64,000 bases of DNA from a virus: positions 57,239 through 121,238 of the IMG/VR virus record IMGVR_UViG_3300042691_013609; one strand, written 5' to 3'. The notes beneath the pieces are model-generated. The model made no database searches, was not told the DNA's origin, and saw only the letters and a program-made list of their open reading frames with translations. Position 1 is the stretch's first letter. Each line of letters begins with the position of its first letter. Positions 4,024 to 10,807 of this stretch are shown here, one piece after another. Both the position numbers and the translations under genes were made by a program.

Positions 4024-4074
4024 TTTGAAAAAGATTGTAGCAGTTACCTCCGAGGTAACTGCCGTGTTATAAAA

Positions 4075-4959
4075 TTAGTTTAGTTGTGCAAGTGCTGCGC
4101 TGAATGTGTTCTGTACCAATGTATTCACTGAAGAGTAAAGAAGTTTCTCCTCATTCTTATTCGACTTGTCATGTGTAGCGTACCTTGTGAACCCATTCAC
4201 AACAGAGAACAAGTTGTCGCCGGTATTACTCATCTCGATAGCCACACTTCTGTTGATTGCATCAAGCATTGTCCGTGACTGCGCACTCATGGTCTTGTAA
4301 TCCTTTGCTGAAAGACCTGTTACTTTCTTAATGAAAGAATCAAGTTCATTACTATCGATCCTCAATGATGCCATGCGCCCGAAGTCTATAAGGAACTCAT
4401 TGTTCTTTTCTATGGTGTTGGCAATGTACCCACACAGATTATAAATCTTCATGTGGTTATTAGTGGTGTTCTTGAATGACATAACTTGTGAGTGGGGCGA
4501 AGATGCACCATTACTGCACCAAAGTCTGTACATATACTCTGTAATGGATGTCTTGGTAAGTCCGTCAAATCCAGTTCTGAATTCAAGTCTACGCTTTATC
4601 ACATCTCCAACCATAGGTGAACCTTTTATCTCGGTAGTTGGTAGTGCCAATGTGAATGCCACCTTCTTGCCACCATGGTATTCTTTAAAGTCCAAAGTTG
4701 AAAGATCGATATTCACATCACAACTCATAACAGACTGCACAATACTCTCAAGCATTATCTCAAGATTCATTGGTGAATATCTGCTGCCGACTACGCCAAG
4801 AGCAGCACCGCCTGAGTTCTTATACACACCGAATGCATCAGGGCTATCGAACATCTCGTTGCCAGTGTGTAGTTGGATAAGTTTAGGTTCAAACAACTTC
4901 TCTCTTACTGCTTCGATGTTGTCGAACTCTCTTTCGATTTGATTTAAAATGTTACTCAT
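4075..4959 (-). CDS. DUF932-like protein
   Basis: LGVVGSRYSP, FDG, RLWCSNG motifs and late N.FT..ATH; about 290 aa. Confidence 0.7.
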   Translation of the reverse strand: MSNILNQIEREFDNIEAVREKLFEPKLIQLHTGNEMFDSPDAFGVYKNSGGAALGVVGSRYSPMNLEIMLESIVQSVMSCDVNIDLSTLDFKEYHGGKKVAFTLALPTTEIKGSPMVGDVIKRRLEFRTGFDGLTKTSITEYMYRLWCSNGASSPHSQVMSFKNTTNNHMKIYNLCGYIANTIEKNNEFLIDFGRMASLRIDSNELDSFIKKVTGLSAKDYKTMSAQSRTMLDAINRSVAIEMSNTGDNLFSVVNGFTRYATHDKSNKNEEKLLYSSVNTLVQNTFSAALAQLN

Positions 4960-5020
4960 TTGTTTGATGTTTTAGATTTAAGAATAATTGCTACAATAAT
5001 TAAGATTAAAAGATAGATGT

Positions 5021-5281
5021 TCATGGCGTGTCTTGTATTACGATTGCGTTTGATTTAATCATGCCCCACACTTTAGATACTGCTGAGTTCCAATTGGTTC
5101 TCAGTTTAGATGCAAGTTCTCTTACCTTGCCGAGATAGTTACGAAACCAAATGATTACCTTCCACGCCCAAAGCAGATGGAAGATAGACACCATGTCGTT
5201 TCCAAACTTATCCTTCTTTCCGTACAATGATATGGTTTCCTTTGCGTAATGCACATCCACCATGCTATAAAAGTTTTTCAT
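5021..5281 (-). CDS. Hypothetical protein
   Basis: 86-aa ORF co-oriented with the region. Confidence 0.5.
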   Translation of the reverse strand: MKNFYSMVDVHYAKETISLYGKKDKFGNDMVSIFHLLWAWKVIIWFRNYLGKVRELASKLRTNWNSAVSKVWGMIKSNAIVIQDTP

Positions 5282-5309
5282 GCTAATTGATTTTTAAATT
5301 ATTGATTAT

Positions 5310-5350
5310 CAGTTCATTCTAAAATTGAGCAGTATAAATAAACTCAGGGT
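5310..5350. repeat. 41-bp exact direct repeat, copy 1 (copy 2 at 19383-19423)
   Basis: CAGTTCATTCTAAAATTGAGCAGTATAAATAAACTCAGGGT identical at both sites. Confidence 0.95.
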
Positions 5351-5352
5351 GT

Positions 5353-5448
5353 TTATATATAGTATAATATGTATGCTATACAACATAGTGTATATAATAA
5401 AGCAATAGTAATAAAAGCACCCATCTGAATTAAAGATTTGTTTTCCAT
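5353..5448 (-). CDS. Putative 31-aa membrane peptide (not in the ORF track)
   Basis: MENKSLIQMGAFITIALLYTLCCIAYILYYI*; hydrophobic and fills a gap. Confidence 0.4.
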   Translation of the reverse strand: MENKSLIQMGAFITIALLYTLCCIAYILYYI

Positions 5449-5474
5449 GTTGATTATATTTAATGATTAATAAA

Positions 5475-5702
5475 TTAAAATTGCGCTAAGAACTGCTGCT
5501 TTGCAGGGATACGTACTCTTTTCTTTTGCGTTTTCCTACCCTTACACGCATTGAAAACCATTGTGCTGCTATCCCATACTCCATTCAACTCACGTTGTTT
5601 CTGTTTAACCAATAGGTTGAATGGTTTCCAATCACTCTCCCATGGTTGTGGGTAGTACCCTAATTCGTAGACTGCCATCTCTTCTGCTAATGAAAGTTTC
5701 AT
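5475..5702 (-). CDS. Hypothetical protein
   Basis: First ORF after promoter and palindrome. Confidence 0.6.
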   Translation of the reverse strand: MKLSLAEEMAVYELGYYPQPWESDWKPFNLLVKQKQRELNGVWDSSTMVFNACKGRKTQKKRVRIPAKQQFLAQF

Positions 5703-5763
5703 ATCTTGTTTTAGTTTGCGGCAGTTACCTCCGAGGTAACTACCCTTGTTATAAAATGATATA

Positions 5764-5771
5764 CAAATATA
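5764..5771 (-). promoter_or_regulatory. Bacteroidota -7 element TATATTTG
   Basis: CAAATATA on the plus strand, within an AT-rich cassette shared with 7325 and 9283. Confidence 0.6.
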
Positions 5772-5837
5772 AGTGAATTAATTTAATTAAAAAAGTTCCT
5801 ATTGATTTATTTTGTAGCCTGCCGGAATAATTTCAGA

Positions 5838-8714: not shown

Positions 8715-8793
8715 ATACCATTGAGTAGTTACCTCAGAAGTAACTACTCAGAACAGATTTAATGCCCGAGTAGTTACCTCCGAGGTAACTGGG

Positions 8794-9174
8794 TTAGTCA
8801 AGAACGTAGTGGATTGTACCGCTGTCGGTTGTATCGACAGCATTCATCTTAACTACAATCATAGAGTCCCCACTTACATCCGGGACTCTGACTAATACCT
8901 TTCCATTCACGACCTCCACTTCCGTGTAGGTCATTATAGATTTTGCATTCCATTCAAAAAATTCATTTGAATGTGCTGCGGAAATTGAGTCAAGGAAAGC
9001 AGACATTGCATCCATTGACTTAAAAGTTGAATCGATCCGACCTGTTTCTGTGCCAAGGGTAAGACCTTTGACATAGTAAATGTCAGACGTACCATAGACC
9101 GAAAGGTCATACGGCTTTGCAGCATACCAACCCACAAGGATTCCAAATGCTGCGCTGAATAAAGATTTAGACAT
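8794..9174 (-). CDS. Hypothetical protein with N-terminal hydrophobic segment (start MSKSLF)
   Basis: The longer ORF-track start runs through a palindrome, so the downstream ATG is preferred. Confidence 0.6.
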   Translation of the reverse strand: MSKSLFSAAFGILVGWYAAKPYDLSVYGTSDIYYVKGLTLGTETGRIDSTFKSMDAMSAFLDSISAAHSNEFFEWNAKSIMTYTEVEVVNGKVLVRVPDVSGDSMIVVKMNAVDTTDSGTIHYVLD

Positions 9175-9282
9175 AAAAAATAAATTTAGAAACCAAGCGC
9201 AGAATCGAACTGCCGTAGTTACCTCCGAGGTAACTGCCAAACCATTCAAGGTTACCGACATCTCTCAATGCCGTTTGCACTA

Positions 9283-9290
9283 CAAAGATA
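9283..9290 (-). promoter_or_regulatory. Bacteroidota -7 element TATCTTTG
   Basis: CAAAGATA; cassette homologous to 7292-7377. Confidence 0.65.
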
Positions 9291-9361
9291 ATGCAAATAG
9301 TTTAATTAAAAAAGTTCCTACCCAACTATTTTCAGAAGGATAGAAACTTTTCCCCTCAGAA

Positions 9362-9625
9362 TCAGAACCCTTTCTTTCCTGCTCTCGCAGGTACTGGGGC
9401 AAGTAATCTCTCCCTTGTCAGTGGGGAGTGACCAACGGGAAGCCATGTGTTGACAGTATTAATATACTTGTCAACAATCTCATCACCTCCATAGTGGAGG
9501 GATGAATTGTAGTTACCCTTTCTGTAATCAGAGACTAATTCAATAGCCCTCTTACCTCTGTAAAGGGCGGATGTCTGTACACCATCATTGTACCATGATG
9601 TGTACGCAAATTTAATATTACTCAT
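9362..9625 (-). CDS. Hypothetical protein
   Basis: 87-aa ORF just downstream of the palindrome cluster. Confidence 0.65.
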   Translation of the reverse strand: MSNIKFAYTSWYNDGVQTSALYRGKRAIELVSDYRKGNYNSSLHYGGDEIVDKYINTVNTWLPVGHSPLTRERLLAPVPARAGKKGF

Positions 9626-9962
9626 TTTAAATATGGTTTGCGGTAGTTACCTCGGAGGTAACTACCATGGTTAAAAAATCATTTTTTTGTAGTTACCTCC
9701 GAGGTAACTGCCAAGAGACATTTTCGTTCCTAAGTAGTTACCTCCGAGGTAACTACTTTTTTGTTTGGTGTAGTTACCTCCGAGGTAACTGGCGAAAATG
9801 GCGGGTAAAAAACTGAATAAAGACATTGGTTGCCATCATCAGCACTACATACCCCTATGTAGCGGACACAATACACCATAGTACCATGTTTCGGCTTCAT
9901 GTATGCAGTTACCTCCAAGGTAACTACAAAAATGCATCGATTGCGATGCAATCAAAAACCCA

Positions 9963-9997
9963 TTTACCCCTACCTACACAAAGCAGATAGGGGTAAA
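9963..9997 (-). terminator. Hairpin downstream of 10013..10639, possible terminator or processing stem
   Basis: TTTACCCCTA / TAGGGGTAAA 10-bp inverted repeat. Confidence 0.4.
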
Positions 9998-10012
9998 GGG
10001 AGGGAGTGGTGC

Positions 10013-10639
10013 TTATTCAGCACCCTCCAATGAATCCCAACGCTGACGGGCAGCATTGACGATTGTTTCCAAATCGGAAATATCCGCCTGCCCAATAAAG
10101 GCAAGCACCGCCTCCAAGGATGTGACATTTGTAGTTACCTCCGAGGTAACTGCCTCGTCAGTACCCTCACCCTCAGACTCAGAGGCAGCCTTGCGACCGC
10201 CCGATTTCGTGTTTCCGGTCGCCTCATTCACCGCGCTCGCAAGCGCGTTAAGAGACCAAATGCCCTCCTCCATGTAGAGGGTTCTCGCCACATCGGGGTG
10301 CTTGCCGATTGTGGCATAAATGGTACATTGCTTGTACCCAAAGGCCCGAGGGCCAAATTTCTTGTCGCCCATCCAAGATTTGAATGAGGTGTAGTTGCCG
10401 AGATTGGCAAGGTTGCTCTCCACTACCGCGCGGAGGGCAAGTACTGCCTTTCCTACCGCGATGTATCCGTCCACAATGGACGTGTGTTCGCGGTGGCAAG
10501 CAGCGGTTAATTCTCTTTCCGCGTCCGACACCATGGACGCGAGGGTGGCTTGTTCTGTTGTGGTCAACCAAATGCCCTTAACGTCTTCGATTACGACTTC
10601 AGGGACGATTACTGCGGTGGATACTGATTTCTTTGACAT
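10013..10639 (-). CDS. First early gene; DUF3102-like putative DNA-binding protein
   Basis: YIAVGKAVLALR...SFKSWM...FGYKQCTIYATIG resembles the DUF3102 pattern (iG.L..aK...gef..W....fs.r.A..ym.ia); contains a palindrome copy in frame (VTSEVT). Confidence 0.55.
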   Translation of the reverse strand: MSKKSVSTAVIVPEVVIEDVKGIWLTTTEQATLASMVSDAERELTAACHREHTSIVDGYIAVGKAVLALRAVVESNLANLGNYTSFKSWMGDKKFGPRAFGYKQCTIYATIGKHPDVARTLYMEEGIWSLNALASAVNEATGNTKSGGRKAASESEGEGTDEAVTSEVTTNVTSLEAVLAFIGQADISDLETIVNAARQRWDSLEGAE

Positions 10640-10706
10640 GACTAAAAAATTGATAGGTTACTGCCTTTGGTGGTGTTTCTCGTGTCCCTACTTTCAAAAG
10701 CATACG

Positions 10707-10737
10707 CAAATTTACATACTTATTCCGATATACCAAA
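10707..10737 (-). promoter_or_regulatory. Bacteroidota primary-sigma promoter (-33 TTTG, 19 nt, -7 TAAATTTG)
   Basis: CAAATTTA at 10707-10714 and CAAA at 10734-10737. Confidence 0.75.
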
Positions 10738-10807
10738 CTTTTTACCTAAAAAAATTCACTTTTTTTGAAATTTTTTTTTGGACCACTCAGTTACCTCCGA
10801 GGTAACT

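Follow-up and report, generated by a model that had tools for sequence, protein, structure and literature searches.

A sequence-invariant dyad array in the small-gene block of a distant crAss phage relative, tied to an orphan protein modelled as a dimer

Within phage genomes, no parts change faster or are less understood than the blocks of small orphan genes, and we know of no regulatory signal for the small-gene part of the crAss-like phages. The subject of this article is a 19-bp palindrome, AGTTACCTCNGAGGTAACT, that is repeated 15 times within 6.8 kb of such a block in the virus record IMGVR_UViG_3300042691_013609 of IMG/VR. The record is 121,238 bp long and is estimated to be 80% complete; the window, that is, the whole stretch of DNA that was analyzed, is its right-hand 64 kb (bases 57239-121238), and positions are given within the window. 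An earlier reading made from the letters of the window alone (hereinafter, the sequence-only reading) had taken the palindrome for a dyad site of a dimeric DNA-binding protein rather than an RNA hairpin, with operators that shut off early genes, parS-like loading sites on the first-injected DNA or crossover sites that shuffle gene cassettes as the candidate roles; that the block is early or first injected was a presumption of that reading. The array is a sequence-invariant set of dyads, tied to an orphan protein modelled as a dimer (encoded by gene A, with which the block begins) in a crAss-related lineage, and it lacks some defining features of each known system that it resembles. No paper on such a palindrome array in crAss-like phages was found in a search outside which lay the supplements, possibly including promoter tables for phage phi14:2.

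In its behaviour, the array appears closest to the promoter-early stem-loop (PeSL) cassettes of the T4-type phages RB49 and phi1 (PMC2839356, PMC4122927) and, in the mechanism proposed below, to multi-site regulators such as stoperators and KorB. According to the two reports, the PeSLs are short, repeated, intergenic stem-loop elements in hyperplastic blocks of small orphan genes, and the indels and gene replacements between related phages end in these repeats; both features recur here. They are described there as composites of a sigma70-type promoter and a stem-loop that vary in sequence and position and number ~50 per genome, whereas in the present array the palindrome alone is repeated, the stem-loop sequence is invariant, a promoter-like site is found near only four of the 15 copies, with the promoter upstream of the palindrome, and the array co-occurs with one particular protein gene. 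Mini-circles excised between neighbouring repeats are another trait of the PeSL cassettes.

Stoperators are asymmetric sites of temperate phages that are spread genome-wide and bound by a monomer; a single phage protein binds them and acts both on promoters and on elongating polymerase, which is the same as the working model here. The likeness lies in the many intergenic copies of one short site that are described for the Cluster A mycobacteriophages (PMC9283540). In contrast to these sites, which share one orientation, the array described here consists of dyads, is confined to 6.8 kb of the 121-kb record, carries its asymmetric centre six times in each orientation in the related locus L093 (see below), and occurs in a record in which no integrase was found. 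KorB-OB of plasmid RK2, ParB-parS and SopB-sopC are systems with multiple perfect palindromes, some near promoters and some far from them; the KorB palindrome is odd in length with a central S, the protein that binds it has a flexible linker and dimerises through a C-terminal part, and the tandem sopC sites are ~40 bp apart, a spacing like that of the tandem copies here. No match to ParB_N (PF02195) or ParA-type AAA_31 (PF13614) was found in the 80% complete record at E <= 0.01, which leaves the parS-like loading that the sequence-only reading had considered without support, and protein A has no significant similarity to ParB or KorB (one homologue against KorB, E 0.08; Spo0J, Z 4.6, rank 15).

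The origin of phage lambda, at which the O protein acts, resembles the array in its four tandem dyad iterons of ~19 bp and in the location of such a site in the stretch of the O gene that encodes the linker, but protein A matches no initiator family, most copies of the palindrome are dispersed at gene junctions, and the copy inside gene A is lineage-specific. REP and BIME elements are extragenic palindromes of 20-40 bp that start with GTAG, often follow stop codons, are sometimes clustered and are associated with RAYT transposases; the palindrome here starts with GTAG as well when Y is T but it is symmetric rather than a one-sided head, occupies a single block, keeps orthologous positions, and no Y1 transposase (PF01797) was found in the record. 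Integron attC sites, the substrates of a tyrosine integrase, are imperfect, 57-141 bp long and contain extrahelical bases, in contrast to the near-perfect palindromes of 18-23 bp and the lack of a PF00589 match in the record. Coliphage N4 injects its own RNA polymerase, which uses three small DNA hairpin promoters with a 3-nt loop and a defined orientation. Compared with these early promoters of a virion RNA polymerase (PMC4496689), the present elements are symmetric, number 15 and are missing from 80 related loci.

A scan of the window with up to two mismatches recovered exactly the set of 15 copies listed in the sequence-only reading (Table 1), of which 13 are exact and two have one mismatch each. 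None occurs in the other 57 kb of the record outside the window or, altogether, in the 114 kb beyond the block; the reversed pattern gave no matches in the record, and 100 dinucleotide-preserving shuffles yielded a mean of 0.00 and a maximum of 0. No other perfect palindrome (arm of at least 7, loop of at most 5) recurs three or more times in the 121 kb, and because the whole record contains only one isolated 9-mer half-site outside the copies, the dyad is the unit. The copies become denser toward the start of the block, with nine of the 15 in the first 2.1 kb (10807-8727) and six in the other 4.7 kb, and only the copy inside gene A lies within a credible open reading frame (ORF), both as previously noted; the copy at 9217 is covered by the longest ORF call (8794..9261) but precedes the in-frame ATG that is taken as the start of gene C. 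On the plus strand, the centre base is C in 13 of the copies, G in one (9645) and A in one (8727), so that in the sense of transcription, the genes of the block being on the minus strand, it is G in 13 of the 15. The -1/+1 flanks are always Y and R (plus strand: T/G 6, T/A 4, C/A 3 and C/G 2; in the mRNA sense, C..A is the commonest pair, with six), as counted previously. Given that position +2 is C in 14 copies and -2 is G in 10, the unit extends to 23 bp, G-Y-[19]-R-C.

Table 1. Features of the small-gene block of the window, in the order of transcription (strand., not assigned)
Feature	Position	Strand	Remarks
Palindrome copy 1	10789..10807	.	51 nt upstream of the -33 TTTG of the gene A promoter-like site; position kept in L093, L094 and L095
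Bacteroidota-type promoter-like site of gene A, TTTG-N19-TAAATTTG	10707..10737	-	
Gene A	10013..10639	-	208-aa orphan helical protein (P0001), predicted homodimer, candidate palindrome binder
Palindrome copy inside gene A	10133..10151	.	Read AVTSEVTT, in disordered linker
Two terminator-like structures (hairpin + T-run) after gene A	9926..10000	-	z -7.14; kept in L093 and L094
Palindrome copy, one mismatch	9907..9925	.	Directly upstream of the hammerhead candidate
Type II hammerhead ribozyme candidate	9824..9896	-	30.4 bits, cut-off 37
Tandem palindrome copy 1/4	9772..9790	.	Before gene B
Tandem palindrome copy 2/4	9736..9754	.	Before gene B
Tandem palindrome copy 3/4	9691..9709	.	Before gene B
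Tandem palindrome copy 4/4	9645..9663	.	Centre flipped; 19 nt before the gene B ATG
Gene B	9362..9625	-	87 aa; homologues in L093 and in palindrome-free G001
Palindrome copy	9217..9235	.	Between promoter-like cassette (-7 box 9290) and gene C ATG (9174)
Palindrome copy	8772..8790	.	3 nt past the gene C stop
Palindrome copy, one mismatch	8727..8745	.	11 nt before tRNA-like element 1
tRNA-like element 1	8644..8716	-	No D stem; tRNA model 22 bits, cut-off 29
Gene D			Between tRNA-like elements 1 and 2
tRNA-like element 2	8128..8200	-	No D stem; 21.9 bits
Palindrome copy	8092..8110	.	17 nt past tRNA-like element 2, ~14 nt before a small ORF (gene E)
Palindrome copy	7653..7671	.	After gene F; stem extended by GGGC/GCCT, then T6; terminator-like
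Gene G			After the T6-bearing copy 7653
Palindrome copy	7272..7290	.	Between promoter-like cassette (-7 box 7332) and gene H ATG
Genes H, I (Pfam GP88) and J			After copy 7272
Palindrome copy	5723..5741	.	Between promoter-like cassette (-7 box 5771) and ATG 5702
Gene K and further genes up to the DUF932 gene			After copy 5723
Palindrome copy	4042..4060	.	Between DUF932 gene stop (4075) and next ATG (4023)

The distribution of the array among related phages is narrow. The 80 relative loci that were compared (the best of 329 matching stretches, fetched via the 216-aa protein encoded just upstream of the block) carry neither the palindrome nor gene A; in none of them is any palindrome repeated at least three times, nor are there any comparable repeated 12-mers. 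The closest relative by terminase (G001, 78% protein identity) is syntenic with the window up to the gene-free region that precedes the block and retains homologues of genes B and G, which are parted by ordinary, unique terminator hairpins; it has neither the palindrome nor gene A. A scan of metagenome contigs with the alignment of the A family identified three loci, L093, L094 and L095, with A proteins that are 46-48% identical to the window protein, and these were the only loci with gene A homologues among all those fetched. All three have the same architecture as the window and carry an 18-bp form of the palindrome, AGTTAC-YTCGAR-GTAACT, in 13, 9 and 3 copies, respectively; because L094 and L095 are near-duplicates, the array is known from two to three independent lineages. 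Hence the array co-occurs with gene A, whereas G001, with B and G but without A, has no palindromes. Exact and relaxed scans of IMG/VR yielded no further array, with at most two copies per locus, and scans for GYAGTTAC-N6/7-GTAACTRC gave only single or double matches with centres unrelated to the palindrome. As a side observation, the N7 form was found in 112 viral stretches compared with 21 for the N6 form, a fivefold excess.

Conservation of the copies contrasts with the divergence of the proteins between which they lie. Between the window and the relatives with the array, protein identity is 46-48% for A, 29% for B, 32% for C and 41% for F, whereas the leader between genes A and B, the products of which are 48% and 29% identical, aligns over ~390 columns with a mean column identity of 77%, with its five copies, the terminators, the hammerhead candidate and even the spacers in register.

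Comparison of the 40 copies (those of the window, L093, L094 and L095) reveals a unit of 22-23 bp, G-Y-AGTTAC-YTC-(S)-GAR-GTAACT-R-C. The outer arms AGTTAC/GTAACT are identical in all 40, the -2/+2 positions are G..C in 33, and the -1/+1 positions are Y..R in all 40 (C..A 11, C..G 8, T..A 7 and T..G 14). At the latter positions, Watson-Crick pairs number 15 compared with 19.9 expected from the margins by our own arithmetic, that is, the pairs do not covary. Of the 25 copies of the 18-bp form, 24 combine one CTC half with one TTC half, which yields a T.G or C.A mismatch in a hairpin; the sole exception to this uncompensated inner asymmetry is one TTCGAA copy. The asymmetry is not oriented with respect to transcription, with six copies in each direction in L093, and the centre of the orthologous first copy is flipped in L093 relative to L094 and L095. 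Thus, the co-orientation of the copies proposed previously holds in the window, where 13 of the 15 centres agree, but not in general. The free assortment of Y..R together with the uncompensated inner asymmetry in both orientations favours the half-site G-Y-AGTTAC-Y-T-C, in which transitions would be tolerated, and argues for a protein that reads duplex DNA over a selected RNA stem; the earlier preference for a dyad site over an RNA hairpin is strengthened accordingly. One may guess that the rule of one C half and one T half reflects avoidance of CTCGAG and TTCGAA, or that it stems from an asymmetric founder copy through gene conversion.

The candidate binder is the product of gene A. This protein has no Pfam or PHROG match, the PDB sequence profile search, the ESM Atlas search and a profile search of a 50%-clustered library of 1.84 billion representatives provided no name, with only five gene A-type proteins in that library, and none of the fold searches gave a convincing match (best Foldseek E 0.28 for PDB and 0.069 for BFVD; best VIA Z 5.5). 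Ten homologues, 53-87% identical, are present in a large protein collection; none was found in IMG/VR, and a tblastn search with one of them (P0008) against GenBank phages gave no match. The fold model (mean pLDDT 72.7) consists of a helical core (25-145), a disordered linker (146-173) and two C-terminal helices, and the residues encoded by the internal palindrome fall within the linker, where VTSEVT, the palindrome translated in frame, is kept in four of the 10 homologues (65-87% identical). In one further homologue (P0009), PVTSEVTT is located in a spurious N-terminal extension and the copy is therefore upstream of the gene. The homodimer model of A scored 0.76, compared with 0.00 for the best of three controls; the mark for this score is reached by 20 of 30 proteins solved as one-chain pairs and by one of 23 solved as single chains. 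The dimer runs agree in at least 66% of the contacts, with a partner pLDDT of at least 71, and the modelled dimer is symmetric, with an interface made of helices 24-80 and 175-204. At the level of the model, dimerisation of the A protein is supported. The protein is a reasonable candidate for the palindrome binder in that it is found together with the motif, forms a homodimer in the model and is encoded by a gene that itself contains a site. Membership of A in DUF3102 (PF11300), for which there are weak leads only (rank 27 among Atlas clusters, with a score of 0.94 and 169 shared features, and a BFVD row at E 0.2), is not supported: there was no match for A and its 10 homologues at E <= 5 or for the six frames of the record at E <= 10.

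The copies also mark places where gene content changes. With t for a tRNA-like element, the gene order is A-B-C-t-D-t-E-F-G-H-I in the window, A-B-t-X-t-E-F-C-H-G-I in L093 and A-E-F-C-H-I in L094; the two copies that lie between F and H, both of which are conserved, enclose G and a promoter-like cassette in the window, and C' in L093 and L094. Hence gene content between the copies varies while the motif is kept, which is what the proposal of cassette shuffling in the sequence-only reading called for. L093 and L094, which are 89-92% identical in DNA, show the process at closer range: an 812-bp block of L093 that contains B, two tRNA-like elements and gene X, and the ends of which are two copies, is missing in L094, and L094 has one palindrome-plus-spacer unit fewer in the tandem set and one more before the hammerhead. 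These three indels end exactly in copies; a fourth difference (G' and a copy) ends in microhomology at the start region rather than in two copies. Crossover at the copies is supported, as far as such alignments can tell, because the cassettes differ between lineages and the three indels end exactly in copies. The record has no match to a tyrosine recombinase (PF00589) or a Y1 transposase (PF01797), although 20% of the genome may be missing.

The population of the window itself was represented by contigs of four DNA runs, with many bins uncovered in three of these. No joints were listed, and none of the loose ends (3683, 5761, 5794, 6231, 7488, 9295 and others) is inside a copy; these contigs neither support crossover at the copies nor provide evidence against it. 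The break points of the population variants are located near gene borders and promoter-like cassettes. In one contig of run X8 (~90% alike), 3711 is joined to 4074, with 37 other letters replacing 362 (3712-4073); this is a natural variant without the 71-aa gene and, possibly, without copy 4042.

Several elements interspersed among the copies may act as RNA. The hammerhead candidate, located between the gene A terminators and the four tandem palindromes, has all the core boxes (GAAAC, GUC and CUGAUGA). The orthologue in L094 (1289-1354) exceeds the cut-off, at 40.1 bits, with UUGAUAA in place of CUGAUGA, presumably a tolerated C3-G8 to U3-A8 swap, and the L093 counterpart spans ~1143-1205; the stems differ in sequence between the lineages but still pair. 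The two tRNA-like elements were missed by ARAGORN and score under the Rfam tRNA cut-off, as do those of L093 (1736-1799 and 2099-2167; 27.9 and 25.4 bits), and their position beside palindrome copies is conserved. Matches to microRNA families of Rfam are artefacts of neighbouring palindromes pairing with each other.

Promoter-like sites are regularly placed with respect to the copies. All four intergenic TAnnTTTG sites of the block, which resemble promoters of the Bacteroidota type (consensus TTTG/TAnnTTTG), have a copy within 120 nt, one of these upstream of the site and three between the -7 box and the ATG. The latter three belong to a cassette, GGAAYTTTTT... followed by TTGC and then TAYMTTTGTA on the minus strand (5771-5799, 7332-7360 and 9290-9318), that in each case precedes a palindrome copy, and a similar cassette lies before copy 2411 of L093. 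The -7 box of gene A and the first ~45 nt of its leader (window ~10640-10714, minus strand) are near-identical in L093 (~367-432), where the protein is 48% identical; judging from this alignment, the leader may be an RNA element or a protein site.

The reading that fits these data best, although it falls somewhat short of an even chance, is that the copies are binding sites of protein A that double as recombination homology. Under this model, selection would maintain the dyad because a dimeric protein, most likely A, recognises its sequence on duplex DNA; A would be expressed from its own host-type promoter. The site ~90 bp upstream of the gene A transcription start suggests autoregulation or looping; A dimers would fill the cluster of four sites, spaced 36-46 bp, before gene B and the single sites between the later promoter-like cassettes and the start codons, and their occupancy would co-ordinate expression of the small-gene block by repression or as a roadblock. 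The comparison of contigs supports, beyond inference, that the same ~20 bp, present in direct order at nearly every junction, serves as portable homology for deletion, insertion and exchange of cassettes. Purifying selection on the copies is indicated by their orthologous positions across proteins that are less than 50% identical and by the arms invariant in 40 of 40. A bolder and quite improbable reading is that gene A and the array make up a self-contained, portable module of a regulator with its sites that turns neighbouring genes into swappable cassettes.

Several observations weigh against binding by A. The spacing of the invariant hexamers differs (7 bp in the window, 6 bp in L093-L095), which is awkward for a rigid dimer and trivial for a loop, although tethered halves such as those modelled for A could tolerate the 18- and 19-bp sites alike; independent degeneracy of the half-sites does not account for the one-C-half-one-T-half rule; no DNA-binding fold or family can be assigned to A, so that binding is purely what we infer; the co-occurrence comes from only two to three lineages, and genes C, F and H also co-occur with the palindrome. 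One operator per promoter would be enough, yet copies are found also at junctions without promoter-like sites. Other observations of this kind are the interleaving of the copies with the hammerhead candidate and the two tRNA-like elements, the leader that is better conserved than the proteins on its two sides, as fits a functional RNA, the centre base that in the window follows transcription, and the T-runs that make copies 7653 and L093 3156 terminator-like. Alternatively, the palindromes would be hairpins in a long transcript of the block: the hammerhead and tRNA-like (RNase P/Z-type) cuts would divide the polycistronic RNA, and the hairpins would cap the new 5' and 3' ends against nucleases or, if followed by a T-run, terminate transcription. 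The constancy of the sequence would then be due to a factor, perhaps the A protein, that binds this RNA specifically. This RNA-level alternative is unlikely but has to be taken seriously: in both lineages, every processing element has copies beside it (copy-hammerhead-copy, copy-tRNA-like, tRNA-like-copy), the hammerhead orthologue of L094 is above the cut-off, the one-base difference of the centre between lineages resembles a change of loop length, extended stems with T5-6 are found at 7653, L093 3156 and L094 2454, and copies lie 14-42 nt upstream of start codons. Against it stand the lack of covariation at the flanking pair and the inner mismatches, where C.A in the sense RNA is as common as U.G (9 versus 12 unique positions). 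Besides, a plain hairpin need not keep AGTTAC across such diverged lineages; ordinary unique terminators serve after gene A and in G001, where there is an evident need for termination; and copy 1 may be untranscribed because it lies upstream of the gene A promoter-like site and behind the strong terminator-like hairpin of the preceding operon.

The four tandem copies, with A/T-rich spacers conserved in L093, the copy in the linker-coding part of A, the modelled dimer and the gene-free, repeat-rich region of 0.5-1.1 kb before the block in the window, L093 and G001 would also suit an origin, with A as a replication initiator or copy-control protein, the tandem copies, the internal copy and 10810-11340 as the origin itself and the dispersed copies as titrating sites. 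This appears improbable in view of the lack of an initiator family match, given that the L093-type A genes have no internal copy and that 10 dispersed junction copies are not expected of an origin; moreover, in G001 and 79 other relatives, the non-coding region is present but A and the palindromes are missing, so that these phages replicate without either. A more radical idea is that the palindromes are signals of the crAss-type injected RNA polymerase or its loading factor, extruded on the entering DNA, with one start per gene; we consider this to be quite improbable, and the specific version in which the extruded palindrome is recognised by the polymerase itself, with starts just downstream, to have at most a slim chance. 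Besides the distant relationship of the phage to phi14:2, the virion polymerase of which, according to a preprint (bioRxiv 10.1101/2020.03.07.982082), transcribes the early genes and works on denatured DNA, this version would be in line with the 14-42 nt between copies and start codons and with CAAA occurring within 12 nt downstream of 19 of 37 copies (L095 left out as a duplicate of L094), compared with four of 37 for the mirror position upstream. The preprint reports no common motif upstream of the early transcripts. All 80 related loci lack a repeated palindrome although crAss-like phages are said to encode this polymerase, the element is a symmetric one, the sole asymmetry of which occurs in either orientation, several copies directly follow stop codons or precede a host-type promoter, and the polymerase gene was not identified in the 80% complete record, no DFDxD motif having been found in its large ORFs. 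Finally, the palindrome could be a functionless REP- or MITE-like repeat that has spread through the block, with shuffling as a side effect. The copies are indeed homogeneous within a genome and differ between lineages (19 versus 18 bp), the flipped centre at one orthologous position of L093 versus L094 and L095 looks like gene conversion, indels end in copies, and a Saprospiraceae genome holds both forms (see below). A selfish or neutral origin is nevertheless hardly credible, given the purifying selection indicated by orthologous positions and invariant arms, the failure to find a Y1 transposase or tyrosine recombinase in the record and the lack of an array in species-representative bacterial genomes.

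One exactly defined 23-bp site marks nearly every junction of the block, keeps its positions where the proteins are less than 50% identical, and is accompanied by a single orphan protein for which a dimer is modelled; this makes a directly testable candidate pair of regulator and site. The block also shows, in a phage that does not belong to the T4 group, a natural case of gene gain, loss and exchange at short repeats. Because the same leader holds the hammerhead candidate and, in the block, D-stem-less tRNA-like elements occur, it is a compact test bed for combined punctuation at the DNA and RNA levels. The virion polymerase reading, if true, would matter most, as it would provide the first sequence-defined early promoter for that enzyme class.

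A host site or the end of a miniature inverted-repeat transposable element (MITE) was rejected as an explanation of the palindrome after a scan of one genome per bacterial and archaeal species: AGTTACYTC-N0-1-GARGTAACT was found in 59 stretches from many phyla, mostly as single matches, close to the ~70 expected by chance (our own arithmetic), without any bacterial array, and only two of 65 outside matches have the phage flank signature GY..RC. One metagenome-assembled genome (MAG) of Saprospiraceae (L160 4369-4426, G004:C196) contains a 19-bp form and, 40 bp from it, an 18-bp form in the chromosomal interval between the convergent genes for ClpS and a dioxygenase, plus one copy elsewhere, and a second has two related palindromes 1.6 kb apart; the further positions are L162 4837 and L161 953 and 2594. 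Counted over the whole MAG, the palindromes number 3, 2, 1 and 1 in four MAGs; no gene A homologue was found in them, and, the MAGs being incomplete, its absence is not implied. These palindromes may hint at the host or at a shared factor but they are not an array. A CRISPR-like array is ruled out because the spacers are conserved between lineages, and a Shine-Dalgarno role of GGAGG because it is 19-47 nt from the ATG.

Judging from its proteins, the phage is distantly related to the crAss phages. Matches to phage families were obtained for the terminase, the portal and the major head protein. Among named phages, Cellulophaga phage phi14:2 has the terminase nearest to that of the record (26% identity), with gut crAss-like phages next; a blastn search of the GenBank phages with 3600-11500 gave no match. 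The metagenomes that hold the stretch come from freshwater, lake, wetland and similar habitats, and no RNA run that contains the stretch was found; a single RNA run, from the same sample as one of the DNA runs, has next to none of its words. From 1 to ~20300 of the window, every gene reads on the minus strand. In the order of transcription, the preceding operon ends in a strong hairpin with a T-run, followed by ~470 bp of gene-free, repeat-rich DNA, copy 1, A/T tracts and the promoter-like site of gene A. The gene-free stretch of the window (10810-11340) contains short repeats of the CCATA type, as does L093 (1-270), where it likewise precedes the block; in G001 (L012 14560-15650), it contains three direct repeats 44 bp apart. 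Possible roles of this stretch are those of an origin, a packaging site or a genome end.

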